NCBI GenBank assembly: GCA_964416845.1
Contig: CAYQFV010000003.1
Span: forward strand, 1 to 59,594
Reading direction: 5' to 3'
DNA: 59,594 bases
Source: an uncultured Phycisphaeraceae bacterium
Lineage (GTDB): Bacteria; Planctomycetota; Phycisphaerae; UBA1845
In this document: positions 5,349-59,594 of the stretch, one piece after another
Numbering within the stretch: the first letter of the stretch is position 1
How the letters are laid out: each line of letters starts with the position of its first letter
Notes under the pieces: generated by a model
Databases searched by the model: none
What the model was told of the DNA's origin: nothing
Seen by the model: the letters and a program-made list of their open reading frames with translations, nothing else
Program-made: the position numbers and the translations under genes

Positions 5349-5521
5349 CGCGCCGTTGCACGGAATTCGGCGTCTACGAGGGCGAATCCGCGAGATTGCC
5401 CACGGAACCGGCTGGCACTTCGCCTTCGACACGCCCGTCCGTCACACTCTCGCCGGCGACCGGTAGCTATAACTATTCCCACAAATCCGACAGGCGAGAG
5501 AACGCGACACGTCGGGTGTAA

Positions 5522-9602: not shown

Positions 9603-9608
9603 ACCATC

Positions 9609-14251: not shown

Positions 14252-14316
14252 CCGCCGAAGTATAGTTGCGCGACCTTGGTATCTCAACACGACCGTCGCC
14301 CGTAAGAGAATGCGTC

Positions 14317-20256: not shown

Positions 20257-20420
20257 GGCATTGTCTCCTCACGACGGCTATACCTTGGCATTGTCGTAGG
20301 CGCACGCGATTGGAAGCCACAAGGTCGAGGCGGCGTTCGTGCACTGCTCGAGAGCAGTGGCACACCCGTCCGCGAGTAATCCGGCAGCGTTTTCAGGCAC
20401 CTTGGGTACGATTCGCGGTC

Positions 20421-32727: not shown

Positions 32728-32866
32728 GAACGAAGTCTGGGGACGCTCGCCACCGACTTCGACACAGCGGCATTGGTATTGCGTTGTAGCGTGGCGATTG
32801 CTGATGGAGCAGTTCATGCGAATCCTCTCAAACCGGATCGAACAGTCCGCAACGATGTCACGGACG

Positions 32867-34171: not shown

Positions 34172-34521
34172 GTTCCCACTGTCTCCCCGGCCCGATCGCG
34201 AAACCATAATCTATCGGCGCCAAAAACTCCAGATCGTCGCGGCCGCACAAGGCCAGAATTATACCATTCCCGGCTGCCGTGTGACTGTTGCGTGCACAAG
34301 TTTGGCTTTAGATCGTCCAACCCGCCAGCCCAAAACCGGCCAAGGTTGGGCGTCTACCGCAAACCTGCCCGCCGCCGCCTCGCGGTGACTGGCATCGGTT
34401 GTTCGGAACGGCCACATGGTGACGTTCGATCCGCTGACGGCGTGCCCAGGCCGTGACGGGCGTTGACACCGGCGTCGTCTCGCCCTAACACATAGTCGGT
34501 TCGCGTGCGCCGATACGCTCA

Positions 34522-37396: not shown

Positions 37397-37437
37397 ATCA
37401 GTTTCAACTCAAGCACCGTTTCTGCGTGGCTTGGGAC

Positions 37438-37923
37438 TCAAGCTTCAAAGATCGAACCTTCCTTGACTTCCTTCAAGGTGTCTGCGACAAGCGATCCTTC
37501 CGGCGAAACGCTCAGATCGGCCCAGATTAGTCCCTTTGGGGCAGGACCGCCGGTTACCAGTCCGTTGGCGTCGAACCTCGATCCGTGGCAAGGGCACTTG
37601 AACGTGCCATCTTCAGCCCGGTTCGTGATGCAGCCCAAATGGGTGCAAACGGCGGAGATGGCGTGAAACCCTTCGTCACTGCGGAACAGCCAAAGGTGCG
37701 GGGATGGGAAGTACGTGGCGGAACCAATGGCGAATTGGTCCGGACGCCCGAGCTTCACCTTCGAGTCGGATTCGGGGAACACCGAGGGCATTGGCAGTCG
37801 CAATGCCCCCATAATGGCCATGACAAACGCGACGACGGTCGTCCACGCCGCCGCCAACCCCAGGAAATCGCGCCGCGTTGCCGGCGGCTTGAATCGTTCA
37901 CTTTGCTCGATCGTTGATTGCAT
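37438..37923 (-). CDS. Rieske 2Fe-2S subunit
   Basis: Tat-like RRDFL plus TM helix; CTHLGC and CPCHGS. Confidence 0.95.
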   Translation of the reverse strand: MQSTIEQSERFKPPATRRDFLGLAAAWTTVVAFVMAIMGALRLPMPSVFPESDSKVKLGRPDQFAIGSATYFPSPHLWLFRSDEGFHAISAVCTHLGCITNRAEDGTFKCPCHGSRFDANGLVTGGPAPKGLIWADLSVSPEGSLVADTLKEVKEGSIFEA

Positions 37924-37931
37924 CGGTTCTC

Positions 37932-39872: not shown

Positions 39873-39905
39873 ACGGGTCACCGTGCGCCTAGCTGACAAG
39901 CATTC

Positions 39906-41600
39906 CTATTTCCTGTTCTTCGCAGAAGGTTCCGGTAAGCCTGCGAGCGTACGAACATAGTGTACGAGTTGCCACACTTCGTTGTCGCTGAGGGCTTTTT
40001 GCGCCGGCATCGGCGTGCCCGGAATGCCGACCCGAATCCGCTTGAAGACGTCTTCCGGCTTGTCTCCGCCAGGGAAATAGCCAGTGGTGAGATCCCACGC
40101 CTTAATGCTCCGGCCGCGGTCGTCTACCAACTCCTGCGGACCGTCGCCCTTCCCCTTGTCACCGTGGCAGGACGCGCAGTTGGTCTTATAGAGCTTCGCG
40201 CCAACGGCGGGATCCGGCCGGAACGCAGAGCCAGGCCACGGAACCAGTATGATTCCCTTTGGAGTCAAACGCTTTTCCGCAATTTCCTCGATATCCTCAG
40301 GGGTGACATCGTCGTCATCCGAGAACGCCTCCGTCAGTTTTGCGATTGTGCCTTCCCGATTAATCTCGCGAATATACTTCGCCACAGCCAGCACCTCATC
40401 TTCGGTAAGCTGCGGATTGGACGGCATCTCGCCAAACCGCCGCCCTGTACTGATCGTTCGGACCAAGTCCTCTTGGGTCGGCACACCGTTAATCGCGGAA
40501 ACGTATCGGAACCGCTCATGCCAAAAGTCGCGAGGCTGCCCCTTGATGGTTGCCGCCGCAGGCCCGTTCCCGAGTCCCTTGCCACCGTGACACGCCCCGC
40601 AGAACATTTTGTACAGCGTTTCGCCGCTGGCGAGCGCTGCGTCTTCGTCTATCCGCGGTGGACGCGGCATATGTGTCGCGGGGGCATTCTTTCGATGAAA
40701 GCTCATCATGTACAATGCCAGTGTGCGAGCTTCCTGCGGGGTAAAGCCCATCTTCGGCATCACCGTTCCCGGCGACACCGTTGACGGCGACAGAAAGTGC
40801 TCATAAAGCCATTCCTGCACAGTGTGCTCGCCTTCAACGTGCGTGAAATCGTAATCGTGAGTTCTCTTGTCACCGACGTAGGTCAGGTCCGCGCCAAGAT
40901 CACCACCACCACCACGGTATCGGTGGCAGCCGAGACACCCATTCTCAACCACCAGGCGTTTCCCCTTTACAAGCACTTCGGCCCCCGGAAGCGAAAGCGC
41001 GAGGACCGCCTTCGTGATGCGCGGCTTCGCGACGTCCGGCGCCCCGGCCTGGAAGGAGAAAGCGTACAGATCCGACTGCCCGCCATAAAGGTCGACTTCG
41101 TAGTGGCAGCGCCCACAACTTGTATAGACTGTTGCGTCCCGGAGTAGTGGAGTCATGACATTGGGAACCGGTACGTCGTTGGCGTCCCAACCGTGGGCGG
41201 ATTCCGCCGTGATGGCCCGCCCCTCTCCCTGGTGACAAATCGTACACCCAAACTTCTCCAGAGGGTGGTGCTTGAGTAGATCACCGGGATGTGCCGACAG
41301 TGGCGTCGCAGCGCTCGTCATCTTTGGATTGGCCACCCCCAGATGGCAAGTCGTACAACGATCGATACGCCTCAATTCAGGCAAGAACACCTGTCGGATG
41401 GAAACGTCGAAGGAGGCCGCCGATCGCCTATCACGCTCGGTGTCCGCATCGGCTCGCAGAAGTCGTTGGTACGATCGTTGAAATGCCCGCCAGTGGCCTG
41501 AGTAGTTCTCGCGATAGGCCTCCACCGCCAACACGGCAATCGAGGACGCCGACGCGAACAGCAAGGCCGTCTTCATCATACGCAGTGGATTGCGATCCAT
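39906..41600 (-). CDS. Membrane-anchored hexaheme cytochrome c
   Basis: Six CxxCH (CTTCH, CTICH, CGRCH, CLGCH, CGACH, CASCH); N-terminal hydrophobic anchor. Confidence 0.9.
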   Translation of the reverse strand: MDRNPLRMMKTALLFASASSIAVLAVEAYRENYSGHWRAFQRSYQRLLRADADTERDRRSAASFDVSIRQVFLPELRRIDRCTTCHLGVANPKMTSAATPLSAHPGDLLKHHPLEKFGCTICHQGEGRAITAESAHGWDANDVPVPNVMTPLLRDATVYTSCGRCHYEVDLYGGQSDLYAFSFQAGAPDVAKPRITKAVLALSLPGAEVLVKGKRLVVENGCLGCHRYRGGGGDLGADLTYVGDKRTHDYDFTHVEGEHTVQEWLYEHFLSPSTVSPGTVMPKMGFTPQEARTLALYMMSFHRKNAPATHMPRPPRIDEDAALASGETLYKMFCGACHGGKGLGNGPAAATIKGQPRDFWHERFRYVSAINGVPTQEDLVRTISTGRRFGEMPSNPQLTEDEVLAVAKYIREINREGTIAKLTEAFSDDDDVTPEDIEEIAEKRLTPKGIILVPWPGSAFRPDPAVGAKLYKTNCASCHGDKGKGDGPQELVDDRGRSIKAWDLTTGYFPGGDKPEDVFKRIRVGIPGTPMPAQKALSDNEVWQLVHYVRTLAGLPEPSAKNRK

Positions 41601-42892: not shown

Positions 42893-44278
42893 TCAGAATC
42901 CAATGGCAAATTGCATGAAGAATCCGTCTTCATTGTCGTCACCACGCACGTTGTCGTGCGTGTAAGTGGCCTTCCAAACGATGTTCGGACGGATCCAGTA
43001 ATCGAGCCCGAATGTCAACCGCTCACGATCCGCACCGCGGGTTGTGGGGCCGGATTCGCGTACCTGATCATAGCGAACAACGAATTCGACGTTCTTGAGG
43101 TCAATGCTATCGCCGAGCGTGAAGCTTGTGAGTGTCGGCCGGTACGCCCCTTGCACGAACCATCCGTTGCGCTTGTTGTTGAACGTGAACGGATCGAATG
43201 GCCCGGTAAAGACGAACTTGTCGGTGTCCACCCACATGGCCTCCCCTCGGAAGTCCAATCGGCCTTTGATGGCCTCGATCTCGCGTGCGTAACTGAAGTC
43301 AACGCCCTGAATAAGCGTATCAACGCCCCGGGACGCCGAACCGCTGTCACCGACTCTCCCGGTCAGAAAAGAATATCCGACTTCCAACTCCGGTATTGGC
43401 AAGAATCCGACTCTGCCGCCAAACGTCTTGTCGTTGTTGTTGTCACGGAAGTTCTCGAACCCGAGTTTTCCTGCGGAGGCAAACGCCGTGTCGTCGAAGT
43501 TCGGACCGTTCACATAGTATGTGGCATAGTTGAACTTCGTGTCGCCAACCGCAAACCCACCGCGCAACTGGACACCGAGCCCCGTTTCTCCCATCAGTCC
43601 GCGCTCATAGATGAGCGGCATGGTGGTCGTCTTGTTGATCCACGGCGGATGCCACCGCTCCCAAAACGTACCGAACGGTATCAGAAACTTGCCCGCGCCG
43701 ATAGTCATGTAGTCGTTGAGCAAGTAACTGAGCTGGAACTGCCCGAGTTCGACTTCGGTCTCTTCGTCGTCCAGTGCGAGCTCGATTTGCGTCTCGAGCA
43801 ACAGCCTGTCGATCGGCTTCCACAAAAGAATCGGAGCAATGGCAGCGCCGAATGTTGAATCTATATTGTCGCGATCCTGAAACGTCACGACTGCCGATCC
43901 GCCGAGCGCAAAGTTCGTCATGCCCGGCAGCAAAGGTTCCGTCACGTCGGTCAACTCCTCCCGCATGTCTTGAAGGATGGACTCGCGCTGACGTAACGCA
44001 AACGCGTCAAATCTCGCCTGCCAGTCTTCCGGCGATGTGTCGCCCACACTGGTCTTGAGTTCCGTAAGTTCCTTGCGAAGTTTTTCGTTCTCTTGCTTGA
44101 GCTGCACATACTCGCCTCGGAACTGCTGATACTCCTTCAGGAACTTCTCGAATTCGCGCCGTGTCAATGGTGCATCGCCGGCGGAATCCTGCTGCGCGAC
44201 GAGAGTCGACACTGGACCCGCGATGCACAGGAAAGCCAGTGCAAACAACCCGAATCGTGACGCATGGAGAGTTTTCAT
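42893..44278 (-). CDS. Outer-membrane beta-barrel (porin) with N-terminal coiled coil
   Basis: Signal peptide, heptad-rich segment, alternating beta-strand pattern, terminal FMQFAIGF. Confidence 0.8.
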   Translation of the reverse strand: MKTLHASRFGLFALAFLCIAGPVSTLVAQQDSAGDAPLTRREFEKFLKEYQQFRGEYVQLKQENEKLRKELTELKTSVGDTSPEDWQARFDAFALRQRESILQDMREELTDVTEPLLPGMTNFALGGSAVVTFQDRDNIDSTFGAAIAPILLWKPIDRLLLETQIELALDDEETEVELGQFQLSYLLNDYMTIGAGKFLIPFGTFWERWHPPWINKTTTMPLIYERGLMGETGLGVQLRGGFAVGDTKFNYATYYVNGPNFDDTAFASAGKLGFENFRDNNNDKTFGGRVGFLPIPELEVGYSFLTGRVGDSGSASRGVDTLIQGVDFSYAREIEAIKGRLDFRGEAMWVDTDKFVFTGPFDPFTFNNKRNGWFVQGAYRPTLTSFTLGDSIDLKNVEFVVRYDQVRESGPTTRGADRERLTFGLDYWIRPNIVWKATYTHDNVRGDDNEDGFFMQFAIGF

Positions 44279-46318: not shown

Positions 46319-47944
46319 GTGAGACTCGTGAAGACCACGCGTACACACGCACTGAACATCCGCCGGATCGTCGGTGGGACGCTCATGCTCGTGTGTTTCG
46401 GCGCCAATGTGCTCGCTGTGATCTATGTCACGCGGGAACACAAACTGATCGAGGACACCATCTCGGAGACGACGTCGGACCACGGGGTAGCGTGGGCACG
46501 GCTTTGCGCCGTCGAGATGCAAAGTGGAGGTGTTGCGGGTCTTCAGCGCCTGATTGACGCGATCGGACAGAGCCGCGGCGTTCGCCTTGCCATGGTCGTG
46601 GGCAACTCCGGGCGGGTCGTTGCTGCGACGGACCCGTCGCAAGTCGGTCGGGTGCATCGCATCGATCACGACGCCATCGCCGAAGACCAGCCGTCAGAAG
46701 CGCACCACGTAGAAGAACTCGGGCCGTCGCCTACGGGTTTCTTTCATGAGGAAGGACACACCTTCCAATTCGTCTTCCCCATTCGCAACGACGGAAAAGA
46801 CTACGGCGAACTCATATTGGATGTGAATACCGCCTGGGGCAACCTGCAGGCGAAAGCGCTGGCGCTGAAAGGCTTGGCGCTTGTCTTTGCCGTGACCTTG
46901 CTGATAGGGTTGGCAGCGTGGGCTCTCGACTGGCGATTGCGTAAGGCTGTCAAAGCCCTCATCGCCGCAACCCGAGCCATCGCCAAGGGCGAGCGAACCT
47001 TCGACGTCGAGGTCGGAACCGGCGACGAATTGGACATTCTGGGAGATAGCGTCAAGCAACTCGCCGAGGCGCTTCAAGACACCGAGGAGAGAGTGGCACA
47101 CTGGCATCGAGAACTTGAATCCACAATCGCCAACCGAACTGCACAGCTCGAAGAGTCGCAACAGCTTCTTGCCGAACGCGAAAAGATGGCCGCGCTGGGG
47201 TTGATGGCCGCGGGCATCGTGCACGAGATCGGAAACCCTCTAACTGCGATGTCGGCGATCGTCCAGCGAATACAGCTTAAAGCCAATGCGGCGCTTGGAG
47301 AAAAGTGCGGCGTGTTGGTCGAGCAGATCGATCGGATCTCAAGAATTGTCGACGACATGCGCCAAGTGGCGAGGCCGGTGTCCGCCAGAGGTTATTCGAC
47401 GAACGTCAATGAGACGCTGCGCATCGCCATCAAGGTGACGCAATACGACCCCCGGTCGAAGATGGTGAAGATTAGCACCGAGCTTGCGAACGAGGTTCCC
47501 CGAGTATCGGGCAATGCCGACCGATGGCAGCAAGTCTTCATCAACCTGATCATCAATGCGTTGGACGCCATGCCCGACGGAGGACAGCTAACCGTTTCGA
47601 CTTCTGTTTCCGGCGAGCTTGTGATCATTTCTTTTCGCGATACCGGCAGTGGCATGACGCCCGATCAGATCAGGAACCTGTATCACCCTTTCTTTACGAC
47701 AAAGGCGAGCGGGGGGATGGGATTGGGACTGTCGGTTTGCAATAGCATCGTACGGAGCTACGGAGGCGACATCGCGGTAACAAGTCAACTCGGATCGGGT
47801 ACCGAGTTTCGGATTACCCTCCCACCATACGAGGAGCGGCCCCGTTCGGCCACGTATCCGAAGACCGGTGTTCACGACGACGAGGTTCCCGACGCGACGT
47901 TTGACCCGAAGTTGCTTCACGCCCCACGGAAAGCGACACCGTAG
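46319..47944 (+). CDS. Sensor histidine kinase (2 TM, HAMP, HisKA, HATPase)
   Basis: GIVHEIGNPL, VFINLIINALDA, DTGSG, PFFTTK, GMGLGLSV. Confidence 0.93.
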   Translation: MRLVKTTRTHALNIRRIVGGTLMLVCFGANVLAVIYVTREHKLIEDTISETTSDHGVAWARLCAVEMQSGGVAGLQRLIDAIGQSRGVRLAMVVGNSGRVVAATDPSQVGRVHRIDHDAIAEDQPSEAHHVEELGPSPTGFFHEEGHTFQFVFPIRNDGKDYGELILDVNTAWGNLQAKALALKGLALVFAVTLLIGLAAWALDWRLRKAVKALIAATRAIAKGERTFDVEVGTGDELDILGDSVKQLAEALQDTEERVAHWHRELESTIANRTAQLEESQQLLAEREKMAALGLMAAGIVHEIGNPLTAMSAIVQRIQLKANAALGEKCGVLVEQIDRISRIVDDMRQVARPVSARGYSTNVNETLRIAIKVTQYDPRSKMVKISTELANEVPRVSGNADRWQQVFINLIINALDAMPDGGQLTVSTSVSGELVIISFRDTGSGMTPDQIRNLYHPFFTTKASGGMGLGLSVCNSIVRSYGGDIAVTSQLGSGTEFRITLPPYEERPRSATYPKTGVHDDEVPDATFDPKLLHAPRKATP

Positions 47945-47947
47945 CTC

Positions 47948-49315
47948 ATGTCTGCCACCATCTTGATCGTTGAAGACGAGCGCGCCATTCGGGAAGAGTT
48001 GGCCGATTTCCTCCGCGAGGAGGGGTTCTCGTGTGTTCTGGCTTCCAATGGCCAAGAGGGTATTGCGTGCGTCGATGGTCGCGACCTTGACGTGGTCCTC
48101 CTCGATGTCCGCCTTCCGGACATGTGTGGCATTGATGTGCTGGCCCGCTTGAGAGCACTTGCCCCCGAATCGCACGTCTTCATCATGACAGCACATCCAT
48201 CGGTCGATACGGTCGTCTCGGCGCTCAGGCTGGGCGCCATCGACTACGTGACCAAGCCGCTCATCCTCGAGGACTTACTACAGAAAATCAGACGATCGAT
48301 CGAATTCCGTGCTCAGCAAATGGAAATCCGCTGGTATCGTCAGCAATTGCAAATCGAATACGGTTTCTCGAACATCATTGGCAAGTCTCAAGCAATGAAG
48401 GATGTATTCACCCTGGTCCAACGCGTCGCTTCGACCGAATCACCGGTCCTCGTCACCGGCGAAAGCGGAACAGGCAAAGAACTGATTGCCAACGCGATTC
48501 ACCATAACGGAACCCGGAGAGATGCACGCCTCATCCCACTCAACTGTGCGGCGATTCCGGCGGCGTTGCTCGAATCTCAGATGTTCGGACACCTGAAAGG
48601 AGCGTTCACGGGTGCAGATGTGCGAACTGCAGGCCTGTTCGCAGCCGCCAGCGGTGGGACACTGCTTCTTGACGAAATCGGCGAGTTGCCACTGGAGCTT
48701 CAGCCCAAGCTGCTTCGAGCGGTAGAGCAGCAGAGCGTTCTCCCCGTCGGTGCGACCGAGCCGGTGAGCATTGACACGCGCATCATCGCGTCGACGAATA
48801 CCGATCTTCAGCAGGCTGTAAAGGACGGCCGCTTTCGGGCCGACTTATTCTACCGGCTCGCCATCGTGACCATCGAGATTCCGCCGTTACGCGACAGAGT
48901 CGAAGACATCCCCGCGCTCGTTGAACGGTTCGTCGCCAAGCTGAACACGAAGTTGCGAAAGAACTTCCGTGGCGTATCGAATGCGGCACTCGGACACCTG
49001 CTGCGATACCGTTGGCCTGGCAATGTGCGAGAGCTGCAGAATGTCATTGAGCGGGCCATGATCCTACAAGATGGCGATTTGATCACGCCTTCGGCACTGC
49101 CGTCAAGCTTGCTCGAACGGCCCCATCCGGACCGCGTCGTCGGACCGCTGAAAGCCGCCGTCCATGAGTTTGAAAAAGAATACATCAACCGTATTCTCCA
49201 AGTAACGAATGGAGACAAGCAACTTGCAGCCGAGTTGCTTGGCGTCAGCGTGAGCTCGATCTATCGCAGACTTCAAGCCATCGAAGACGAAACCGGTGAA
49301 TTCGGGCACAACTGA
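47948..49315 (+). CDS. Sigma54-dependent response regulator (NtrC family)
   Basis: Receiver (VEDE, LDVRLP, KP); AAA+ ([29 protein letters not shown]); C-terminal HTH. Confidence 0.95.
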
Positions 49316-49393: not shown

Positions 49394-50797
49394 TCATGAG
49401 CGTTCTTGGCGGCCGGGTGCGGTATCGTCGCCACCGGTCGTAGAAGGCCGCCGCGGCGGTCTCTCGGACGTGGCGAACGTTTTCTTGCGCCGCAGGATGT
49501 GGTGGTAATGTTGTGCAAACCGGTGCGACTCGTCGCGAACTTGTTGCAACACTCTTAAGGCCTCATTGTTGCGAGAAAATCGCACCGGGGCGCTGCGGGC
49601 CTGAATGTAGACTTCCTCCATGCGCTTGGCGAGCGAGATGACCATGGGCGGCTGAATGTTCATTTCTTCAAACGCTTCTTGGGCAGCGTGAAGCTGCCCC
49701 AAACCGCCGTCGATCAGGATGACGTCCGGGTAGAGTTCTTCGCCGACGGCTGCGTGCCGATATCGCCGCGACACCACTTCACGAATGCTCGCGTAGTCGT
49801 CCGTGCCGATGACCGTCTGAATCTTGAATCTCCGGTATGCATTCTTGAACGGCTTGCCGTCAATGAAGCACACGAGAGAGCCCACGGTCTCCTCGCCCAT
49901 CAGATTGGCAATATCAATGCCTTCAATACAGCGAGGCGGGCGTTCCAGCCCTAGCAATGCGGCGAGCTTTTCGAGACCCTTCGCGGGATCGATGTAAAAC
50001 ACTTCCGGTTGGGCGTCGTCGACAACATCGCCGGACAGCGCCAACGAGTTGATCGCCTTGATTCGGTCTCTCAGGCGGGCAGCCTCTGCGTAATCGCGAT
50101 GGGACGAGGCCTCTTTCATTTCCTTGGTCATCTGCCGAACGACGACACTGCGTTTCGAGGCTAGGAACTTCTTCAACCGCTGAATGTCTTTCTTGTAGTC
50201 CTCCTTCGCAATCAACGCGGCGCACGGTGCAGTGCACTGGTTGATCGCATGCAGCAGGCAAGGCCGAAAGAACCGACGCGATTCGTCACCCTCTGCAATG
50301 TCAAGCTCGCACGTGCGAAACTTGAACACTCTTTGCAGGGCGTTGACTGCGTCCCGCACGCCGGACGGGCTGGAGAATGGCCCGTAGAGTTTACTGCCCT
50401 TCAGTCTTGGCGTGCGTGTTACGAATACAGCCGGAAAGTCGTCACGAGTCGTGATCTCAATGTAGGGGAAGGTCTTGTCGTCTTTCAGCATCGCGTTGAA
50501 CGGCGGCTGAATGTCCTTGATGAGACGGCTCTCTCGCAATAGGGCGTCCACTTCAGTATCGCAGTCGAGGAATGCGACATCGGTGACCATGGTGGCCATC
50601 CGGGCGATCTCCGGACCGCGAGTGTTGAGCAGGTCCGCGGACGGTTGAAAATAGCTGCTCACGCGAGAGCGCAAGTCCTTCGCCTTGCCGATGTACAGCA
50701 CACGGCCTTCGGCGTCCTCGAACAAGTACACGCCTGGCGACTTTGGAAGACTCGCGATCTTCTCGCGAATGCGATCGATTCGGTCTGCGTCATTCAT
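49394..50797 (-). CDS. uvrC: Excinuclease ABC subunit C (no C-terminal HhH)
   Basis: GIY-YIG PGVYLF...YIGKAKDLRSRV, UVR helix, EGIDIA, ILIDGGLGQL, RDESHRFA. Confidence 0.92.
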   Translation of the reverse strand: MNDADRIDRIREKIASLPKSPGVYLFEDAEGRVLYIGKAKDLRSRVSSYFQPSADLLNTRGPEIARMATMVTDVAFLDCDTEVDALLRESRLIKDIQPPFNAMLKDDKTFPYIEITTRDDFPAVFVTRTPRLKGSKLYGPFSSPSGVRDAVNALQRVFKFRTCELDIAEGDESRRFFRPCLLHAINQCTAPCAALIAKEDYKKDIQRLKKFLASKRSVVVRQMTKEMKEASSHRDYAEAARLRDRIKAINSLALSGDVVDDAQPEVFYIDPAKGLEKLAALLGLERPPRCIEGIDIANLMGEETVGSLVCFIDGKPFKNAYRRFKIQTVIGTDDYASIREVVSRRYRHAAVGEELYPDVILIDGGLGQLHAAQEAFEEMNIQPPMVISLAKRMEEVYIQARSAPVRFSRNNEALRVLQQVRDESHRFAQHYHHILRRKKTFATSERPPRRPSTTGGDDTAPGRQERS

Positions 50798-50947
50798 CGT
50801 CGATCATTCTATCGAATCGCACCATCCGGCGGTACTGAGAATCGACGACAACGCCCGCGTGTTGGGCGGGGGTTGGTGTGTGCTGACGCACGCGAGTAGG
50901 TGTTGGGGCGAGCGTGGAAACCGCTACGAACGTTTCAAGGAAAGGAT

Positions 50948-52147
50948 CTACTTTCGGGCCGGTATGATGCCCTCGGACGCGAGAGCAGCGACGTCGCCTT
51001 GGGGCAGACCGCTTTCGGTGAGGATGGATTCGGTGTGCTGGCTGTATCGCGGTGCAAAGGGATATTCCGCCGCGGCGCGATCCAGATCCACCGCGGGGGG
51101 CGGGAGCTTGATGGGCTTGCCGTCGGGGCGGCGCGTGGTGGTGAGTACCGGGGCGATCGCCTCCATGTCGCGAACCTGCTGAACGGTGTGGATCGGTGCA
51201 TGCGGTATCTTGTTCTTTGAGAACTCTCGTATCAGTTCTTCAGAGCAGCACGTAGCCGTGACGTTTGCGATGTCCTGGTGGATCGCCGCCCGCTGGGAGT
51301 GGCGGCCTGCGTTGGTGCGGCGAATCTCGCAGTTCAGCGACCGGAACTTCGGGAGTTCGACCAGCCGCAACCACTGCAGGTCGTTGCCGATGGCGATCAA
51401 GATGTGCCCATCCCGCGTGGGATAGACGTTGACGGGTATGAACTTGCGATGCTCGTTGCCGCAACGCGTCACCTCGAGCGTGTCGCAATCGCAGTCGAGC
51501 AAGGGGAGGGTGGTGATTAGCCAGGAGGCTGCTGCTTGCAGCATGGAGACGTGGATCGCACGGCCTTCACCGGTCTCCGCCCGTTCAGCGAGCGCGAGAC
51601 AGACGTTTGCGTAGACCTCATCGCCCGCCTTGAGGTCGACGATGGGTATGCCCGACAGCATGGGCGGTCCATTTGGATCGCCGGTTACCTCCATGAAGCC
51701 GGCCATCGCCTGGATGGCGGGATCGTATCCCGGCGTGTTCGGATATTGCGGTCCCATAGCGGAGATGCCGGCCCAGATGATGTCCGGCTTGGCCTCTTTG
51801 AGCGTATCGTAGTCGATCCCCAGCGCCTGATATCGCGCGGGGAGTGTGTTGCAGCAGAAGATGTCGACATGCAGCGTGGCGATCAACGTCTTGAGCAGCT
51901 CGCGACCCTTGGGGTGCTTGAGGTTCAGCGCGATGGCTTCTTTCCCTACATTCGGCGCGACGAAGTAGGAGCGCCGGTCGTCATCCGCAACCATGCCGCC
52001 GATGTAGCGATTGGGATCGCCGGGCAGGTCCGAACCGTCGGAAGTGGATTCCAGTCGAATGACGCGCCAACCCAGTTGCACAAACCGCAGCGTCGCATAA
52101 CTCAGGGAGAGCGCCTGTTCCATGGAGATGACCGTGCGGCGTTTCAT
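50948..52147 (-). CDS. Class III CoA-transferase (CaiB/BaiF), IaaL-like
   Basis: [36 protein letters not shown]. Confidence 0.85.
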
Positions 52148-54465
52148 GGGCGTTGCCCATCCCGCTGTTTCAACCCGCGTAGAACTCGTTCCGGGGTTAG
52201 TGGCAACTCGTAGAACCTGACACCGGTTGCATTGTACAGAGCGTTGACGATCGCCGCGGCGGTGCAGATGGCCGGCGCTTCGCCGACGCCCTTCGCCCCG
52301 ACCGGCCCCTCGGGGTCGTTGGTCTCGATGAAGTGCATGTCGATCTGCGGGATTTCCGGAGCGGTGACCAACTTGTAGTCGCGGAAGCTTGGGTTCTGCA
52401 CTCGACCATCCTTCACGATCAGGTGTTCCGCGATCGCGTACCCCATGCCCATCACCACGCCGCCCTCGATCTGTCCTTCGATGCCCATCGCGTTGATCAC
52501 CCTGCCGACATCGTGGGCTGATGTCACCTTCAGGATGCGGATGACGCCGGTGCGGGTGTCGACCTCCAACTCCACAACTTGCGTGCCGAACGCATACGAA
52601 GCGGAGACGTCGCCTTTGAATTCGCCGTCCTGCATGACGCTGGGTGGCTCATAGTAGTCGGAGGTGATGACCACGTCGTTCTTGCGGGCGAAGTGCAGCG
52701 AACGAATGAGTTTGCCGAGTTCCAGCAGCGGCTCACCGGTTTCTTGCGTAACAACCCGTCCCTTCCGCAAGTCGAGCGTGCCGGGATCGACCGTAAGTTT
52801 CTCGCCGGCTGCTTTGAGCAGCTTGTCCTTCGCTTTGCGGGCGGCGCCTCTCGCAGAGTTCCCGGCGATGAACGTGGTGCGGCTGGCGTGGACGCCCACG
52901 TCCCATGGCGTGATTTCGGTATCGTTGTTGATGACGGAGATGGCGGAGACCGGCAGGCCAAGTTCCTCGCCGACCAATTGCGCAATGACCGTTTCGGATC
53001 CCTGGCCTATCTCGGTCGAGCCGGTGATCACCGTGACGTGTGCGTGATCGTCAATCTTCAGAATCGTGCCGCACCCGTCTGAGCGATAAATCTTCGCCCC
53101 GCCGCCCACATGGAGCAACGACGCCATCCCAATGCCACGCTTGATGGGACAACATGCGCTGGTCGGGGTGGCCTGAGCTTCGAGATTCGCATCGTGGCGA
53201 GTGACGAACCGGCTGTTTTCGGTTGCGGCGTTCAAGCACTGGGACAAGCCGCACGTGCGAAACACCATGCCCTGCGGCGTGGTTTCTCCCGTCTGCTGAG
53301 CGTTGTGCAGGCGAAATGCCAACGGGTCCATGCCGACCGCCTCGGCCAACTTGTCCATGTGCGACTCGACGGCGAACGTCGCTTGCAGATTGCCGAAACC
53401 GCGGAATGAGCCGCTGTAAGGATTGTTCGTGTACACGACGGTGGTGTGATAGCGACAGTGCGGCACACGATACAGAGACGACACCGTCTGCATGATGACA
53501 AAAGGCGTGGTCGCGCCCCAGGATGTGTAGCCGCCGTTGTCGTGCAACGTCCGACAGTCTCGAAACGTGAGCGTGCCGTCCTTCGCCACGCCGCTGCGTA
53601 AGGTCAGCTCCACCGGCTGGCGTGTCGGAGAAGCCAGAAATTCCTCTTCTCGTGAAAACAGCAGGCGTACCGGTCGGCGGGTTGCTCTTGCCAGGAAGAT
53701 GCAGATCGGCTCGAACGGGTAGATGTCCAGTTTGCTGCCGAACGCTCCGCCGATGACCGGCTGAATCACGCGGATCTTCTCCGGCGGAACATCGATGACT
53801 GGCGCGATTTCTTTCTTGTAGAGGAACGGAACCTGGGTCTGCGAGTGGACGGTGAGGTTGCCCTCGGAATCGAATTGGGCGACCACGCCGCTGACCCCCA
53901 TGCAGCAGTGGGCCACGAAGTGCAATCGAAAAGTGTCCTCGATCACGATGGCTGATTCAGCCTCACCTCGGGCGATGTCGCCATGGCTGTAGTCGTACGT
54001 GAAGGGAACGTTGGTCGGATGCTGGTCATGGATGACGGGCGCTCCGTCCTGAAGCGCCTCCGCAGGCGAGAAAACGGCTGGCAGGTCTTCGTAGTCGACG
54101 TCGATCAGCTTGATCGCCTGCTCGGCGATGTCTTGCGTTTCGGCAGCCACGGCGGCAATCTCATCGCGCTCGCAGCGCACCTTGTCCCGTTTGAGCGGCG
54201 GGTTGTCCCTGCCATGACCGAGCCCCACACCGGGTGTGTCAGCCGCAGTGATGACCGCGTGAACTCCGGGCAACGCCCTCGCCGCACTGGTGTCGATGCG
54301 GACGATTCGCGCGTGCACGCGTTCACTTCGCAGAATCTTGCCGACCAGCATTCCCGGCAGATCGACGTCATGGACGTACTGCGCAGCCCCGGTGACCTTC
54401 TTGGGAGCGTCGAGCTTGGGCACGCGCTTGCCGATCAGTGTTTCTTTCTCGACGGCGGTGGTCAT
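52144..54465 (-). CDS. Xanthine dehydrogenase family molybdopterin subunit, IaaK-like
   Basis: [37 protein letters not shown]; start at ATG 54465. Confidence 0.9.
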
Positions 54466-54959
54466 ACGTGTTCCCTCGACGATGGCCGATTGCGGTCCAG
54501 CGCTGCCGCGATGGCATCGATGATTTTGTGATAGCCGGTACAGCGACACAGGTTGCCTTCGATGCCGCGTTTGATCTGGTCGACGCTGAGATTCGCATCC
54601 CGATTCAAGAGGGATGTGCCCTGCATAATCACACCCGGTGTGCAGAATCCGCACTGGGTTGCTCCGCGTTCGACGAACGCCCGTTGCATCGCGGACAGTC
54701 CGTCGGCAGTCTGCACGCCTTCGATCGTGGTCAGCCTCCGCCCGTCGCAGTCGACGGCAAACATCAGGCAGGCGTTCACAGTCTTTCCGTCAACGAGAAT
54801 CGTGCACGCTCCACACTCGCCTTCGCCGCATCCGTACTTGGTTCCAGTCAGTCTCAACTCGTCGCGGAGCATGGTTAGCGTGTCCGTGGTGACCGGCACG
54901 TCAACACACACTGCATTGCCGTTGAGCGTGAAACTAATCTCTTGCTTGATGCACTTCAT
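54462..54959 (-). CDS. Xanthine dehydrogenase family 2x(2Fe-2S) subunit, IaaJ-like
   Basis: GCGEGECGAC...C and QCGFC...NLCRC. Confidence 0.93.
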   Translation of the reverse strand: MKCIKQEISFTLNGNAVCVDVPVTTDTLTMLRDELRLTGTKYGCGEGECGACTILVDGKTVNACLMFAVDCDGRRLTTIEGVQTADGLSAMQRAFVERGATQCGFCTPGVIMQGTSLLNRDANLSVDQIKRGIEGNLCRCTGYHKIIDAIAAALDRNRPSSREHV

Positions 54960-55806
54960 GCAGCAACCGTTCCGTCAATTCACGAATCAACTGCGTTCGA
55001 TACCACGCCGACGCACGCACGTCGGAAATCGGCGAAACCTCCTGCGCAGCCACCTGCGCGACTTCCGCGATGTGGGTGTCGTCCAGCGCGACGTCTGCCA
55101 GGGCAGCCTCGGTTTTGCGCCCGCGAATCGGAGTCGGCGCGACCGCCCCAAACGCAACCCGAGCATCCTTGAAGGAGCCGTTCTCCTTCACGCCCGCGAG
55201 TCCGACCGAGACCACGGCGATATCCAGCGCCGGCCGGGTACCGAACTTGTGGAATCTGCACACTGTGTGCGGCTTGGGCAGGGGAAACTCGACCGCCGAC
55301 AGAACCTCATCACACTCGATACGAGTCTTGCCCGGGCCGACGAAAAAATCGCAGAGCGGCACGCGACGGCACACCACGCAGCCGTTTCGCCACGATGCTA
55401 ACTCGACTTCAGCGTCCAGCAAAAGCAACGGAATAATCATGTCACCTGCGGGGGAAGCGTTGCAGATGTTGCCGCCGATGGTGGCTGCGTTACGCACCTG
55501 CCCGCTGGCGAAGCAATCCGCCGCCTGAACCACGACATTGGCCGCCTGTCTGAGAAACTCGCTGGCGAGAATATCAGTGATTGACGTCAGCCCACCGATG
55601 CGAACTACATCGTCCGATTCACTGATACCCCGGAGATCGGCAATGCGGTTGACGTTGACCAGTGTCGGTCGAAGCGGACGCGCGCCGGCGCGCATCTGTG
55701 GCAAGACGTCCGTCCCGCCGGCGAACATCGTCGCCGGGCCTTCGGCGAGGATCTGCGTCACCTCGAGGAGCGATTCGGGGACTTCGTATCGTTCGACAAC
55801 TTCCAT
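54934..55806 (-). CDS. Xanthine dehydrogenase family FAD subunit, IaaI-like
   Basis: AGGTD, QVRNAATIGGNICNASPAGD, GAVAPTP; no 4Fe-4S insertion. Confidence 0.92.
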   Translation of the reverse strand: MEVVERYEVPESLLEVTQILAEGPATMFAGGTDVLPQMRAGARPLRPTLVNVNRIADLRGISESDDVVRIGGLTSITDILASEFLRQAANVVVQAADCFASGQVRNAATIGGNICNASPAGDMIIPLLLLDAEVELASWRNGCVVCRRVPLCDFFVGPGKTRIECDEVLSAVEFPLPKPHTVCRFHKFGTRPALDIAVVSVGLAGVKENGSFKDARVAFGAVAPTPIRGRKTEAALADVALDDTHIAEVAQVAAQEVSPISDVRASAWYRTQLIRELTERLLHEVHQARD

Positions 55807-55859
55807 AGTCCTACCGTTCAGATGACCGGCCGAGTCGCGGATTCAATCCTAACCAGCCA

Positions 55860-57470
55860 CTAGACACGCACCGGCTCCTCGTATCGTCCGTAGACTTCAA
55901 CCAAACATGCGGTCAGTTCGCCGACGGTGGCATACGCTTGGACGGCGTCGATGATTGCAGGCATGACGTTCCGCCCGGCGGATGCGTCATCGCGAACCCG
56001 CTGCAAAGTACGTTTTACGTCGTTGTTGTTCCGTTCAGCTTTGATACGCTCCAAACGCTGTACCCGCTCGGCACAAGCGCTTTCGCTGAACGAATGAAAC
56101 TCGACCTGTTGCTGCTCCTCTTCGACGCGGTAGCAGTTCTTTCCAACCTTTCGAATCTCGCCGCTTTCCAGCTTCTTTTCCCGTTCGTAGGCCTGTTTCG
56201 ACACCTCATTCTGAATGTGGCCTTCGGCGATGCCGCGAACAATGCCGCCCCGCTCGTCGACTTCCTTCATCTCCGCCCGAATCTTCTCTTCCATCTGATT
56301 CGTCAAGGTCTCGACGTAGTACGACCCCGCGAGCGGATCGACCGTGTCGCACAAGCCCATCTCTTCCATCAGTATCTGCATCGTACGCAGTGAAATCCGC
56401 GAAGCCTTCTCCGACGGAATCGTGTATGCCTCGTCGTAACAGCACAAAGCCATCGTCTGCGTTCCGGACAGAGCGCTGATCAGCGCGTAGTACGCGCCGC
56501 GAACGATGTTGTTCTCAGGCTGTTCAATGGTCAGACCGGCTCCGCCGCCGCCGGCGATCATGCGCATCCACATCGAGCGCGGGTCTTGGGCGTCGTACTC
56601 GTTCTTGATGATCTTCGCCCAGCACCGACGTCCGGCGCGAAACTTGGCGACCTGTTCGAACAGATTGCCGTGCAGATCGAAGTTGAACGACAGCCGCGAG
56701 GCGAAATCATCGATCTTCAGGCCTCTCTCCAGCAAATGGTCGATGTACGCCCGGGCGATGCAGAACGCGTAGGCCATCTCCTGCACTGGAGTCGCTCCGG
56801 ACTCGCGGATGTGGTAGCCACACACGCTCACCGGGCTGTAGAGCGGGGCGTGCTCCGCACAGTACAAGACCGTGTCGCCCACCAGCTTGATCGACGGCTC
56901 AACTGGGAAGACCCACGTGCCGCGACCGATGAACTCCTTGAGGATATCATTCTGGGCCGTTCCGCGCAGTTTTCGAATGTCGTATCCGCGCTTCTGGGCC
57001 ACGGCAAAATACATCGCGATCAGTGTGGCCGCTGCTCCGTTGATGGTGAGAGAGACAGTGATTTTCTCAAGGTCAATGCCATCGAACGCGGTCTCGAGAT
57101 CCTCCAGCGTGTCGACCGCCATCCCCACGCGGCCGACCTCTCCTGCAGCGGCGGGATCGTCGGAGTCCAGTCCGTTCTGGGTCGGCAGATCGAACGCCAC
57201 GTTCAATCCCGTCTGTCCGTTGTCGATCAGATAGCGGAAGCGCTTGTTCGTTTCCTGCGGCTGGCCGAAGCCGGCGTACTGCCGCATGGTCCAGGGTCGC
57301 CGGCGATACATGTACTTGTGAATGCCGCGCGTGAACGGAAACTCGCCGGGATCGCCGATGTCGTCAACGCCACCGCTGGCCTCGACGTCGGCCGGCGTGT
57401 AGATCGGCTTAATCTCCAGGTTCGACTCGTTGACCAGCGGTTCGATATCCGGCGCTTTCTTGCGATTCAT
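55860..57470 (-). CDS. Coenzyme B12-dependent acyl-CoA mutase, substrate-binding subunit, IaaH-like
   Basis: PFTRG, WTMRQYAGF, QNDILKE, GYHIRE, DPLAGSYYVE; atypical pocket residues. Confidence 0.9.
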   Translation of the reverse strand: MNRKKAPDIEPLVNESNLEIKPIYTPADVEASGGVDDIGDPGEFPFTRGIHKYMYRRRPWTMRQYAGFGQPQETNKRFRYLIDNGQTGLNVAFDLPTQNGLDSDDPAAAGEVGRVGMAVDTLEDLETAFDGIDLEKITVSLTINGAAATLIAMYFAVAQKRGYDIRKLRGTAQNDILKEFIGRGTWVFPVEPSIKLVGDTVLYCAEHAPLYSPVSVCGYHIRESGATPVQEMAYAFCIARAYIDHLLERGLKIDDFASRLSFNFDLHGNLFEQVAKFRAGRRCWAKIIKNEYDAQDPRSMWMRMIAGGGGAGLTIEQPENNIVRGAYYALISALSGTQTMALCCYDEAYTIPSEKASRISLRTMQILMEEMGLCDTVDPLAGSYYVETLTNQMEEKIRAEMKEVDERGGIVRGIAEGHIQNEVSKQAYEREKKLESGEIRKVGKNCYRVEEEQQQVEFHSFSESACAERVQRLERIKAERNNNDVKRTLQRVRDDASAGRNVMPAIIDAVQAYATVGELTACLVEVYGRYEEPVRV

Positions 57471-57868
57471 CGTACGTTCTCACGAATGAAATCAGCGATG
57501 GCTTGCATCTGCGTACCGACGGCGAAGACTGCATCAACGCCGAGTTCCTTCAGGCGTGCATGATCCCGCTCGGGGATGTTACCGCCAACGATCCACAGCA
57601 TGTCGCTCGCCCCGTGGTTCCGCATCAGTTGTGAGACTTGTTCGCAAATGGGGATGTGCGAACCGGAGAGAATTGACAGCCCCAGTACGTCCGCTCTCTC
57701 CTCAACGGCGCGACGGACGATCTGTTCGGGCGTTTTCTTCAGGCCGGTGTAGACCACGTCAAAACCCGCATCCATCAGCACGCGAGCGACGACTTTCGCA
57801 CCCACGTCGTGACCGTCCAGGCCGGGCTTGGCCAGCAGAACCCTGATTCGCTTCTCCCGGTCGCTCAT
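57467..57868 (-). CDS. Cobalamin-binding mutase small subunit, IaaG-like
   Basis: KPGLDGHDVGAK (DxHxxG), GLSILSGSH, VGG. Confidence 0.93.
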   Translation of the reverse strand: MSDREKRIRVLLAKPGLDGHDVGAKVVARVLMDAGFDVVYTGLKKTPEQIVRRAVEERADVLGLSILSGSHIPICEQVSQLMRNHGASDMLWIVGGNIPERDHARLKELGVDAVFAVGTQMQAIADFIRENVR

Positions 57869-58995
57869 GCCGTCAGATCCTTTGCAATGATCAGCTTGTT
57901 GATCTCGCTGGTCCCGCCGCCGTAGAGCGTGAAACGAATGTCGCGCAAGTAACGCTGAGCGGCGAATTCCTTGGCGTAACCGTACGAGCCGAGGATGCGG
58001 GTCGCGTGATCACAGGTCTCGACGGCCCGCTCGGTCGCGAACAACTTGGCCATCGACGCTTCGCGCGTGCATGGTCGACCCTGATCCCTCAGCCACGCCG
58101 AGTAGTGGACCAGATGCGTGGCAGCTTCGAGGTTCGTCGCCATGTCGGCAAGCTGCATCTGAATCGCCTGAAACTTGTTGATCGGTCTCCCGAACTGCCG
58201 GCGCTGCGCGGAGTACGCTAGCGCGTCTTGCAAAGCAGCACCAGCCACACCGTTGGCGAGTGCTCCGGTCATGATCCGAATGTCGGCCAGGATTTCTCTC
58301 AAAAGGCGTTCGCCTTCGCCTTCTTCGCCAAGCCGGTGATCCTCCGGGACGAAACAATTCTCGAAGAACACTTCGGACGTCGGGGAGGCGAGGCAACCCA
58401 TCTTTTCGATCGCCCTGCCGACTTTGAGTCCGGCGAATTCCTTTTCCACAAGGAAGATCGTCAGACGTTTGTCCTCGCCGCTACGGGCAAACACGGTGAA
58501 GAAGTCCGCCAGCGGCGCCGAGGTGATCCACGTCTTCTGGCCGTTGAGGCGATATCCGCCCTCGACCTTCTCAGCAAACGTGACGATGGCCGACAGGTCG
58601 CTGCCTGCATCGGGTTCGGTGATACAGATCGTTCCGATCTTCTCGCCACGAATCGCGGGCTTGAGCAATCGTTCGTGAACGTCGTCGTTGCCAAGGGCGA
58701 ACAGGAAGTGCGTGCCCATCAGGGATTGCATGGCTGCCCCGGCTGCGACGGAGAGGGAACCGCGGGCGACTTCGCTGATCGCCAGGCAGAAACTCAAGAG
58801 ATTCTGCCCCGCGCCTCCGAGCACTTCGGGATACCGCAGGCCAAACAAGCCCAGGTCGGCTAGTTCCCCGAACAGTTCCCTGGGAAATTCGCCGGCCTCA
58901 TCAATGGCTGCTGCCTGCGGCTTGATCCGCTCATCGCAGAAGCGACTGAACGTGTCCCGCAGGAGCTGCTGATCTTGTGATAGCTCAAAATCCAT
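57865..58995 (-). CDS. Acyl-CoA dehydrogenase family protein lacking catalytic Glu, IaaF-like
   Basis: ITEPDAGSD, LNGQKTWIT, QFGRPI, FQAIQ, LGSYGY, YGGGTSEI. Confidence 0.88.
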   Translation of the reverse strand: MDFELSQDQQLLRDTFSRFCDERIKPQAAAIDEAGEFPRELFGELADLGLFGLRYPEVLGGAGQNLLSFCLAISEVARGSLSVAAGAAMQSLMGTHFLFALGNDDVHERLLKPAIRGEKIGTICITEPDAGSDLSAIVTFAEKVEGGYRLNGQKTWITSAPLADFFTVFARSGEDKRLTIFLVEKEFAGLKVGRAIEKMGCLASPTSEVFFENCFVPEDHRLGEEGEGERLLREILADIRIMTGALANGVAGAALQDALAYSAQRRQFGRPINKFQAIQMQLADMATNLEAATHLVHYSAWLRDQGRPCTREASMAKLFATERAVETCDHATRILGSYGYAKEFAAQRYLRDIRFTLYGGGTSEINKLIIAKDLTA

Positions 58996-59009
58996 TATCG
59001 CATCGTTCT

Positions 59010-59594
59010 TCAGTTTTGCCGGCGATGTCTCCTCTTTGACGTCGCCTCTTGATCGATCGCGAGGGAGACTTCGTCGAGCACAACGCCGTAGTCGTCCCGC
59101 GCAGACTGGATGGAAATTACACCGTTTCGCACTTCCTCGGCGACGCGCTCTGCGGAGCGATCGTGGGGATCGCCAAGACCGCCGCCACCGCCGGCCTGTT
59201 GGTGGTAAATCGTGCCGGCTGGAAGACCGGTGACCAGGTCGAGGCTACGTGGGATCTTCTCGGTACCGTTCGGCAACCGCAGCTTGATAGAATTCAGGCT
59301 GCCGTCGCCCCCGCCGTGCACACCGAAGGCCGCCTCGACGTCGCCATCTCCGAAGACGACCAGCTGGGTGTCATCGGCCCCGATCTCGAAAATGGTCTCC
59401 ACGCCCAGACCGCCACGCCACTGCCCCACACCGGCCGAGTCGCACAGGTACTCGTGCTTGCGCAAGACGTGCGGCGTTTGCTGCTCGAACATCTCGTAGT
59501 CCTGATCCAGCAATCCGCCGGACGCATCGATCATGCCGATGTGATCGTAGCCGTCCACGCCTCGCACCGCGCCCGAACCGCCCTTCAACCCCAT
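59010..59594 (-). CDS. Hydantoinase B/oxoprolinase subunit, C-terminal part (5' truncated), IaaE-like
   Basis: DSAGVGQWRGGLG, GGGGGLGDP, GVISIQSARDDYGV. Confidence 0.85.
   Translation of the reverse strand: MGLKGGSGAVRGVDGYDHIGMIDASGGLLDQDYEMFEQQTPHVLRKHEYLCDSAGVGQWRGGLGVETIFEIGADDTQLVVFGDGDVEAAFGVHGGGDGSLNSIKLRLPNGTEKIPRSLDLVTGLPAGTIYHQQAGGGGGLGDPHDRSAERVAEEVRNGVISIQSARDDYGVVLDEVSLAIDQEATSKRRHRRQN

Follow-up and report, generated by a model that had tools for sequence, protein, structure and literature searches.

Eight back-to-back genes on the minus strand fill positions 50948-59594 of the DNA analysed here, a stretch of 59,594 nucleotides (the 59.6-kb "window") from contig CAYQFV010000003.1 of an uncultured Phycisphaeraceae bacterium. 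Read through the list of open reading frames (ORFs) together with Pfam and NCBIfam, the window appears to carry two-thirds, the 3′ portion, of an operon from Phycisphaerae orthologous to the anaerobic indole-3-acetate (iaa) pathway of Aromatoleum.

In the order of transcription, the operon begins with the C-terminal 194 amino acids of a Hydantoinase_B protein (IaaE-like, 59010-59594; Pfam profile positions 381-519 of 519), which is cut by the contig end. Next come an acyl-CoA dehydrogenase (ACAD) with three ACAD domains in Pfam (IaaF-like, 57865-58995), the small B12-binding subunit of a mutase (IaaG position, 57467-57868; Pfam B12-binding and TIGR00640), and the large subunit of this acyl-CoA mutase (IaaH position, 55860-57470; MM_CoA_mutase, 641 bits). 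A three-subunit molybdenum hydroxylase follows, made of a FAD subunit (IaaI position, 54934-55806; FAD_binding_5 and CO_deh_flav_C), a subunit with two [2Fe-2S] centers (IaaJ position, 54462-54959; Fer2 and Fer2_2), and a molybdopterin subunit (IaaK position, 52144-54465; Ald_Xan_dh_C, MoCoBD_1 and MoCoBD_2). The last gene of the operon encodes a class III CoA-transferase (IaaL position, 50948-52147; CoA_transf_3, 222 bits), and the next gene after it is uvrC (49394-50797). For the molybdopterin subunit, the most likely start is the ATG at 54465, giving 773 amino acids, and not the GTG at 54654 proposed in the ORF list, since the gene calls in relatives all yield 773 amino acids.

These genes are tightly packed. 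Four-nucleotide ATGA overlaps join the dehydrogenase to the B12 subunit, the B12 subunit to the mutase, the FeS to the Mo subunit, and the Mo subunit to the CoA-transferase. The FAD and FeS genes overlap by 26 nucleotides, and gaps of just 14 and 53 nucleotides separate hydB from the dehydrogenase and the mutase from the FAD subunit, respectively. All reading frames of the cluster are intact. The domains and coordinates thus confirm the coupled and overlapping gene content that the initial annotation had given for this segment. A scan of the operon for promoters and terminators returned nothing exceeding shuffled expectation. The identical eight-gene order was found again in dozens of independent contigs, and is therefore not due to chance.

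Relationship to the Aromatoleum iaa cluster

The iaa cluster of Aromatoleum is listed as iaaABCDEFGHIJKLMPQR (PMC9613470). Three reference loci were used for comparison: Aromatoleum buckelii U120, a Burkholderiales metagenome-assembled genome (MAG) designated L007, and an Aromatoleum-like metagenome contig designated L070. The published 22-mer iaaF forward primer (PMC8360864) matched 29 loci, this 22-mer being a common high-GC ACAD start; A. buckelii U120 was the only iaa locus among them, and strain EbN1 was absent. Its locus is an 8-kb block in which thiolase, AMP-ligase, hydantoinase A, hydantoinase B, and the first 246 amino acids of IaaF follow one another, so that the comparison with this strain is restricted to the segment from the thiolase through the IaaF N-terminus. 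The Aromatoleum-type genes G to L are accordingly represented by L007 and by L070, whose upstream genes are 93-97% identical to those of A. buckelii.

The L007 cluster reads thiolase, AMP-ligase, HydA, HydB, ACAD, B12 subunit, mutase, FAD, FeS, Mo, CoA-transferase. From HydB onward this is the order of the window (iaaE-F-G-H-I-J-K-L), and it is also that of many metagenome loci. Identities to the L007 proteins amount to 73% for HydB, 65% for the dehydrogenase, 56% for the B12 subunit, 69% for the mutase, 48% for the FAD subunit, 61% for the FeS subunit, 66% for the Mo subunit, and 62% for the CoA-transferase. Against A. buckelii, HydB (IaaE position) is 71% identical, and the 246 N-terminal residues of IaaF are 67% identical. 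The order iaaE to iaaL, as initially proposed, is borne out by these data. Since gene order, the 48-73% identity, the active-site motif of the dehydrogenase, and its position in a neighbour-joining (NJ) tree all agree, the assignment of the window genes as orthologues of iaaE-L is well supported.

The motif and the tree deserve closer description. The C-terminal motif of the window dehydrogenase (...RFTLYGGGTSEI) has GGG at the place occupied by YEG in other ACADs, and its C-terminus is given as ...RDIRFTLYGGGTSEINKLIIAKDLTA, reading ...FTLYGGGTSEI. This replacement of the catalytic YEG is how the IaaF subclass of benzylmalonyl-CoA dehydrogenases is recognised, all of whose members are encoded in iaa-type operons, and the activity of the Aromatoleum enzyme has been demonstrated biochemically (PMC8360864). 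GGG is present in all 120 of the closest database homologues and in all 85 of the family loci examined. The window protein is 65-68% identical to Burkholderiales IaaF and at most 51% identical to any other full-length representative of a 50%-identity cluster; the cluster into which it falls at this level has as its representative a fragment of betaproteobacterial type, 68% identical. The NJ tree joins the planctomycete clade, as sister group, to the IaaF clade of Aromatoleum and Burkholderiales, a long way from all other ACADs. Both the active-site oddity and the grouping with Iaa proteins expected at the outset are upheld. The more distant GGG-type cluster representatives bear the names of Dormibacteraeota and Deltaproteobacteria, and none that of Aromatoleum. 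The window dehydrogenase is thus predicted to be a decarboxylating (2-aminobenzyl)malonyl-CoA dehydrogenase.

A biosynthetic role for this enzyme, in supplying benzylmalonyl-CoA as a polyketide extender unit, was considered and rejected: no polyketide synthase is encoded nearby, the context is catabolic, and the IaaF reaction is irreversible (PMC8360864). A tblastn search of PLSDB plasmids with the dehydrogenase found no iaa cluster, returning only generic ACADs of at most 43% identity in clusters of the fatty-acid or leucine type.

Differences from the Aromatoleum arrangement appear at the borders of the cluster. Beside it in the window there is neither an iaaM-type binding protein nor an iaaQ/R regulator, as uvrC comes next and then a kinase/regulator pair on the opposite strand; likewise, no solute-binding protein or MarR-type regulator flanks the clusters of the relatives viewed.

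Predicted functions of the core enzymes

The small subunit of the mutase has the DxHxxG cobalamin motif in the form DGHDVG, at residue 18. The large subunit retains a tyrosine (in RQYAGF) and an arginine (in GRGTW), where its best match in the Protein Data Bank (PDB), the hydroxyisobutyryl-CoA mutase HcmA, has isoleucine and glutamine. We take these two residues to be the ones that bind the free carboxylate of the substrate in methylmalonyl-CoA mutase structures. Their conservation would fit a dicarboxylic substrate of the aryl-succinyl-CoA/benzylmalonyl-CoA kind, and the specificity residues GRGTW and CGYH.RESG are identical in the planctomycete and Burkholderiales versions. The large subunit is therefore best viewed as a predicted (2-aminophenyl)succinyl-CoA/(2-aminobenzyl)malonyl-CoA mutase.

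For the Mo subunit, the best solved relative is the alpha subunit of 4-hydroxybenzoyl-CoA reductase (HcrABC, PDB 1RM6), with 433 bits against 300 for the next best. Near its C-terminus lies a GVGE motif, whose glutamate is presumably the catalytic one of the xanthine dehydrogenase family. The FAD subunit tells a different story from that of the reductase: its best PDB relatives are ordinary hydroxylase flavoproteins of about 288 residues, and HcrB, the beta subunit of 4-hydroxybenzoyl-CoA reductase, is not among its PDB matches at E<=1e-15. Beta subunits of this reductase type carry an extra [4Fe-4S] insertion; the window protein is of the ordinary type of about 290 amino acids. The equivalog cut-offs of the reductase are missed by all three subunits (alpha, 626 of 995 bits, TIGR03194; beta, 107 of 405; gamma, 149 of 258). 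Because the Mo subunit is nearest to a CoA-thioester enzyme while the FAD subunit looks like that of an ordinary hydroxylase, the complex would be a hydroxylase acting on a CoA thioester, and is expected to hydroxylate rather than dehydroxylate. Its Mo subunit is predicted to belong to an indoleacetyl-CoA 2-hydroxylase.

The hydantoinase proteins, of which HydB reaches 572-584 amino acids in relatives where it is full-length, have CapA and CapB as their best NCBIfam matches and so resemble the ATP-dependent caprolactamase, N-methylhydantoinase, and 5-oxoprolinase enzymes. They differ from caprolactamase in scoring 670 and 423 bits against a cut-off of 1000, and in their predicted substrate, an oxindole lactam. 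IaaCE is itself listed within the hydantoinase A/B family (PMC8453981). The class III CoA-transferase, finally, is predicted to act as a (2-aminophenyl)succinyl-CoA transferase, both within and between molecules. IaaL is reported to move CoA between succinyl-CoA and phenylsuccinate (PMC8360864).

Entry into the pathway and candidate substrates

What then feeds this core? The contig ends inside hydB, and the answer has to be sought in relatives. Eleven planctomycete-type contigs reach upstream of this point, six found by exact-protein look-ups and five by a metagenome scan (L003, L004, L008, L039, L041, L042, L065, L073, L100, L109, and L115). All eleven share the arrangement iorA, iorB, hydA, hydB, ACAD onward, with iorA-iorB immediately 5′ of hydA and stop and start codons that often overlap. 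In these relatives the iorA product combines POR_N, TPP_enzyme_C, and Fer4 domains in about 625-637 amino acids, and the iorB product is a POR protein of about 220-233. None of the eleven has an AMP-binding, AMP-forming ligase in or beside the cluster, the position of iaaB being occupied by iorAB. Most Burkholderiales-type contigs, on the other hand, have a thiolase and a ligase upstream of the dehydrogenase, usually followed by hydA-hydB. Hydantoinase A is present in all eleven relatives and is 64% identical to the HydA at the IaaC position of A. buckelii. A thiolase, 58% identical to that of A. buckelii, was seen in four of the fetched relatives, upstream in L003 and after the CoA-transferase in L039, L041, and L042, where the window has uvrC.

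The IorA protein of L003 scores 688.1 bits against NCBIfam TIGR03336 (IOR_alpha), passing the equivalog cut-off of 650.9. Elsewhere, indolepyruvate:ferredoxin oxidoreductase (IOR; TIGR03336/TIGR03334) is a stand-alone enzyme of amino-acid fermentation that yields arylacetates; in these relatives, it opens an operon that would dismantle the indole ring. With CoA and oxidised ferredoxin, IOR turns indolepyruvate straight into indoleacetyl-CoA, the product that the ligase IaaB forms from indole-3-acetate (IAA) and ATP. Since iorAB replaces iaaB upstream of hydA in the relatives, the pathway is probably, in our judgement, a ligase-free variant of the iaa route fed with indolepyruvate, and its physiological substrate would most likely be tryptophan, by way of transamination, rather than free auxin.

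Under this indolepyruvate-fed scheme, tryptophan would be transaminated to indolepyruvate, which IorAB, a step taken from the relatives, would convert into indoleacetyl-CoA, CO2, and reduced ferredoxin. The three-subunit Mo hydroxylase would then hydroxylate C2 with water to give the lactam 2-oxoindoleacetyl-CoA, and the ATP-dependent HydAB would open it to (2-aminophenyl)succinyl-CoA, leaving the thioester on the "wrong" carboxyl. The IaaL-type CoA-transferase would shift CoA to the other carboxyl, after which the B12 mutase could rearrange the skeleton to (2-aminobenzyl)malonyl-CoA. The GGG-type dehydrogenase would oxidise and decarboxylate this intermediate to 2-aminocinnamoyl-CoA and CO2. 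Beta-oxidation should finally release 2-aminobenzoyl-CoA and acetyl-CoA, with the thiolase encoded in the clusters of four relatives and the hydratase and dehydrogenase elsewhere. We infer all of the functions assigned to this organism from orthology; biochemistry exists for the Aromatoleum enzymes only, namely for IaaF (PMC8360864) and, by the account given there of Schuhle et al. 2016, for IaaB and IaaL.

Several points weigh against this proposal. The window itself has no iorAB, hydA, or any other entry gene. Its closest relative, L038 (dehydrogenase 91% identical), is also cut inside hydB, and the nearest relative whose upstream DNA can be seen has a dehydrogenase of 89% identity. The IorB protein of L003 has TIGR03334 as its best family, but with 148.5 bits against a cut-off of 205.8, and IOR enzymes are broad arylpyruvate oxidoreductases that take several such substrates. 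Within the 59.6-kb window there is no gene for an aromatic aminotransferase, an enoyl-CoA hydratase, a hydroxyacyl-CoA dehydrogenase, an electron-transfer flavoprotein (ETF), or the benzoyl-CoA pathway. Even in Aromatoleum, the reactions of IaaCE, IaaGH, and IaaIJK are only proposed.

The main competitor is free auxin as the true substrate, with activation either through a CoA ligase whose gene lies elsewhere or after ring opening, and with IOR serving as a parallel feeder. An older scheme of 2012 reportedly had the free acid hydroxylated and ring-opened, and then activated with succinyl-CoA by the IaaL-type CoA-transferase. Such a course would agree with the CoA transfer between succinyl-CoA and phenylsuccinate reported for IaaL (PMC8360864), as it would with the 48-73% identity of the core enzymes to a Burkholderiales iaa-type cluster and with the closeness of HydB (71%) and of the IaaF N-terminus (67%) to A. 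buckelii; the cut before the entry genes also leaves room for a ligase in this organism. Yet a ligase is missing from every one of the 11 planctomycete-type contigs and present in most Burkholderiales-type ones, iorAB stands exactly at the iaaB position in translational coupling with hydA, the best solved relative of the Mo subunit works on CoA thioesters, and the window has neither an IaaM-type binding protein nor an IaaR/Q regulator after the cluster. We consider the auxin explanation unlikely, although it keeps some weight. The initial annotation had proposed auxin degradation in which free IAA is oxidised first. The second part is probably wrong, as in the current scheme IaaB first activates IAA to indoleacetyl-CoA (PMC8360864, Fig. 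1 legend) and the Mo subunit resembles an enzyme of CoA thioesters. Of the first part, the orthologous iaa-type core stands, and auxin as the substrate is probably wrong, given the iorAB genes that the relatives have instead of iaaB.

The initial annotation had also left room for a related N-heteroaromatic substrate. Substituted (5-hydroxy or halogenated) indolepyruvates or indoleacetates, or another N-heteroaryl 2-oxo acid, would give a product other than 2-aminobenzoyl-CoA. The general breadth of IOR-type enzymes toward arylpyruvates would allow for it, and the planctomycete proteins diverge from the Burkholderiales ones by 27-52%; a deeper GGG-type lineage with different oxidoreductase fusions indicates moreover that the entry module is plastic. 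Such a substrate nonetheless seems distinctly improbable in view of the high identity to Aromatoleum-type enzymes over all eight proteins, the conserved IaaF signature and clade, the mutase specificity residues identical to those of Burkholderiales, and an IorA that reaches the IOR_alpha equivalog cut-off.

This deeper lineage, the third of the GGG type (52-64% identity), also holds thiamine-diphosphate enzymes like IOR and other 2-oxoacid:ferredoxin oxidoreductases (OFOR), in other fusions. Because of this, entry through an oxidoreductase appears to be common outside the Betaproteobacteria. The modules in question lie at 3545-5563 and 15865-18402 in L047, at 11321-13989 and 17536-20898 in L044, and at 977-5038 in L062, and include a fused POR_N+TPP_C+POR protein of 845 amino acids and TPP_C+Fer4_20+Pyr_redox_2 fusions of 1120-1353. 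The same loci carry either a fused hydroxyacyl-CoA dehydrogenase/enoyl-CoA hydratase or a DUF35/OB-fold protein with an SCP-x-type thiolase, as well as a TetR regulator. It is conceivable, although we would not yet bet on it, that the IOR-fed operon represents a complete, ligase-independent anaerobic tryptophan route, widespread among Phycisphaerae and, in versions with other OFOR fusions, among additional anaerobic lineages, and that the auxin cluster of Aromatoleum is a derived form in which a ligase replaced the oxidoreductase. In that event, planctomycetes would be significant and hitherto overlooked as consumers of tryptophan and indole compounds where oxygen is absent.

Other genes recur within or around the clusters of relatives. 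A small ATC_hydrolase-like gene (PF14196, 160-195 amino acids, no NCBIfam match) is found in iaa-like clusters of several lineages, at 2024-2608 in L003 and 3036-3521 in L004, and also in L047, L048, L058, L062, L068, and L115. Its place is either upstream of iorA or in the interval from hydB to the dehydrogenase gene, and no role for it is evident in the pathway as published; the hydB-ACAD interval of the window lacks it. At the 3′ end of two clusters, after the thiolase, lies the gene for a 649-residue protein with Oxidored_FMN (old yellow enzyme, OYE) and Pyr_redox_2 domains (L041, 20035-21131; L042, 20541-21131). This architecture is that of 2,4-dienoyl-CoA and enoate reductases and also of OYE-type aryl-CoA reductases, and the protein might act on a downstream CoA ester. 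Nucleotidyltransferase/HEPN pairs resembling toxin-antitoxin systems are inserted in the L003 operon between hydB and the dehydrogenase (9346-9982) and between the mutase and FAD genes (14186-14909); another follows the thiolase in L042 (19646-20363). Just 3′ of the L003 cluster (Planctomycetes MAG GCA_022574055.1), on the opposite strand and at the contig end, is a gene for a BcrAD_BadFG-family ATPase (20328-21131), a family that includes benzoyl-CoA reductase subunits and activators of 2-hydroxyacyl-CoA dehydratases.

Host, distribution and genomic surroundings

The planctomycete-like host suspected from the start is supported from several sides. For the DnaE protein that this contig also encodes, all named top matches are from MAGs of Phycisphaerae, Phycisphaerales, or Planctomycetota, with a best identity overall of 75%, and the nearest named relatives of the dehydrogenase are also Planctomycetota/Phycisphaerae MAGs, not proteobacteria. 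Composition is uniform, with GC and GC3 of 0.69-0.78 in the iaa genes and 0.66-0.79 in housekeeping genes. On these sequence grounds, a Phycisphaerae-like planctomycete is confirmed as the host. The cluster is not a one-off, and is widespread in metagenome sequences of Phycisphaerae/Planctomycetota: dehydrogenases of at least 73% identity to the window protein form over 100 separate clusters at the 90% level, and all of the named ones are from MAGs of these groups. An expectation of an unusual host thus holds insofar as the phylum is new for the pathway, and falls short insofar as the organism is no singular anomaly and iaa-like operons of sulfate reducers and an archaeon were already known.

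Could the cluster be a proteobacterial iaa fragment misassembled or misbinned onto a planctomycete contig, or else a recent and possibly non-functional island? The 62-73% identity of most proteins across phyla does imply horizontal transfer at some time, and four assemblies are interrupted within hydB. However, the junction between iaaL and uvrC is real, since an independent JGI assembly (L001) reproduces it at 99.95% identity across window positions 50092-59301. The iaa genes equal the housekeeping genes in GC and GC3, their frames are all intact, and their nearest relatives are other Planctomycetota/Phycisphaerae MAGs. The chimera or recent-island explanation was rejected on account of this uniform composition and the independent assembly of the junction, and we regard it as scarcely credible. 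A horizontal transfer between phyla may well lie behind the 62-73% identity to Burkholderiales, and it would be an old one, because the planctomycete sequences form a deep clade whose members share 73-91% identity. Among these organisms the iaa proteins are conserved up to 91%, and DnaE only up to 75%.

A break inside hydB is common to the window, its two independent re-assemblies L001 and L002, and the closest relative L038, which belongs to another MAG. It suggests that the 5′ part of the operon contains a repeat or has a paralogue, or that it varies between strains.

How does this operon compare with known systems? Anaerobic degradation of indoleacetate to 2-aminobenzoyl-CoA was reportedly worked out in A. 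aromaticum EbN1 and A. evansii KB740 by Ebenau-Jehle in 2012 and Schuhle in 2016 and 2021. The planctomycete clusters share with the iaa cluster of these strains the IaaF motif and clade, the tyrosine and arginine of the B12 mutase, the three-subunit Mo hydroxylase, and the class III CoA-transferase. They differ in having, in the relatives, iorA-iorB for iaaB and a variable position of the thiolase, and in belonging to Phycisphaerae rather than Betaproteobacteria. Oxidation of tryptophan through an iaa-type route is said to have been proposed for Ferroglobus placidus by Aklujkar in 2014. Beyond denitrifiers, iaa-like operons are known from Rhodopseudomonas, from sulfate reducers, and from the archaeon Ferroglobus (PMC8360864). 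Those of Desulfatiglans anilini, strain NaphS2, and F. placidus, compared here by their description, likewise place the iaa core in anaerobes, but the operons of strict anaerobes contain a dedicated ETF paralogue (PMC8360864), and no ETF gene was seen beside the planctomycete clusters viewed or within the window. For this reason, the question of the electron acceptor of IaaF is raised again.

In the literature searched, no paper ties the iaa pathway to Planctomycetes or Phycisphaerae, or to an operonic IOR, in keeping with the initial suspicion that no planctomycete case had been described. What seems to be new here is the same iaa core in a new phylum, with a different entry module. To our knowledge, few complete anaerobic routes for the indole ring of tryptophan exist, and the iaa pathway, the best characterised of them, has been presented as a means by which denitrifiers degrade auxin. 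If the proposal is right, the version beginning with IOR in Phycisphaerae would recast it as a general anaerobic route of tryptophan catabolism. Planctomycetes, usually seen as degraders of polysaccharides, would then gain a role in the turnover of aromatic amino acids. The clusters also supply many diverse orthologues for steps still uncharacterised, those of the Mo hydroxylase, the lactamase, and the aryl-succinyl-CoA mutase.

Housekeeping genes make up the remainder of the window, along with a cytochrome bc/c cluster. The plus strand at 46319-49315 encodes a HAMP histidine kinase and a sigma-54-dependent response regulator, with uvrC between them and the operon; a regulatory link is possible, although this pairing is not conserved in relatives. 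Farther away, on the minus strand at 35777-41600, genes for cytochrome b, a Rieske protein, a 655-residue Fer4_20/Pyr_redox_2/Fer4 flavoprotein, and a 564-residue multi-haem cytochrome c form what resembles a respiratory module of the bc type, in which the flavoprotein would be an unusual partner. Two large overlapping ORFs of 687 and 607 amino acids at 10407-14290 (minus strand) have no Pfam match, as is the case for further ORFs at 31714-34207 and 42893-44278.

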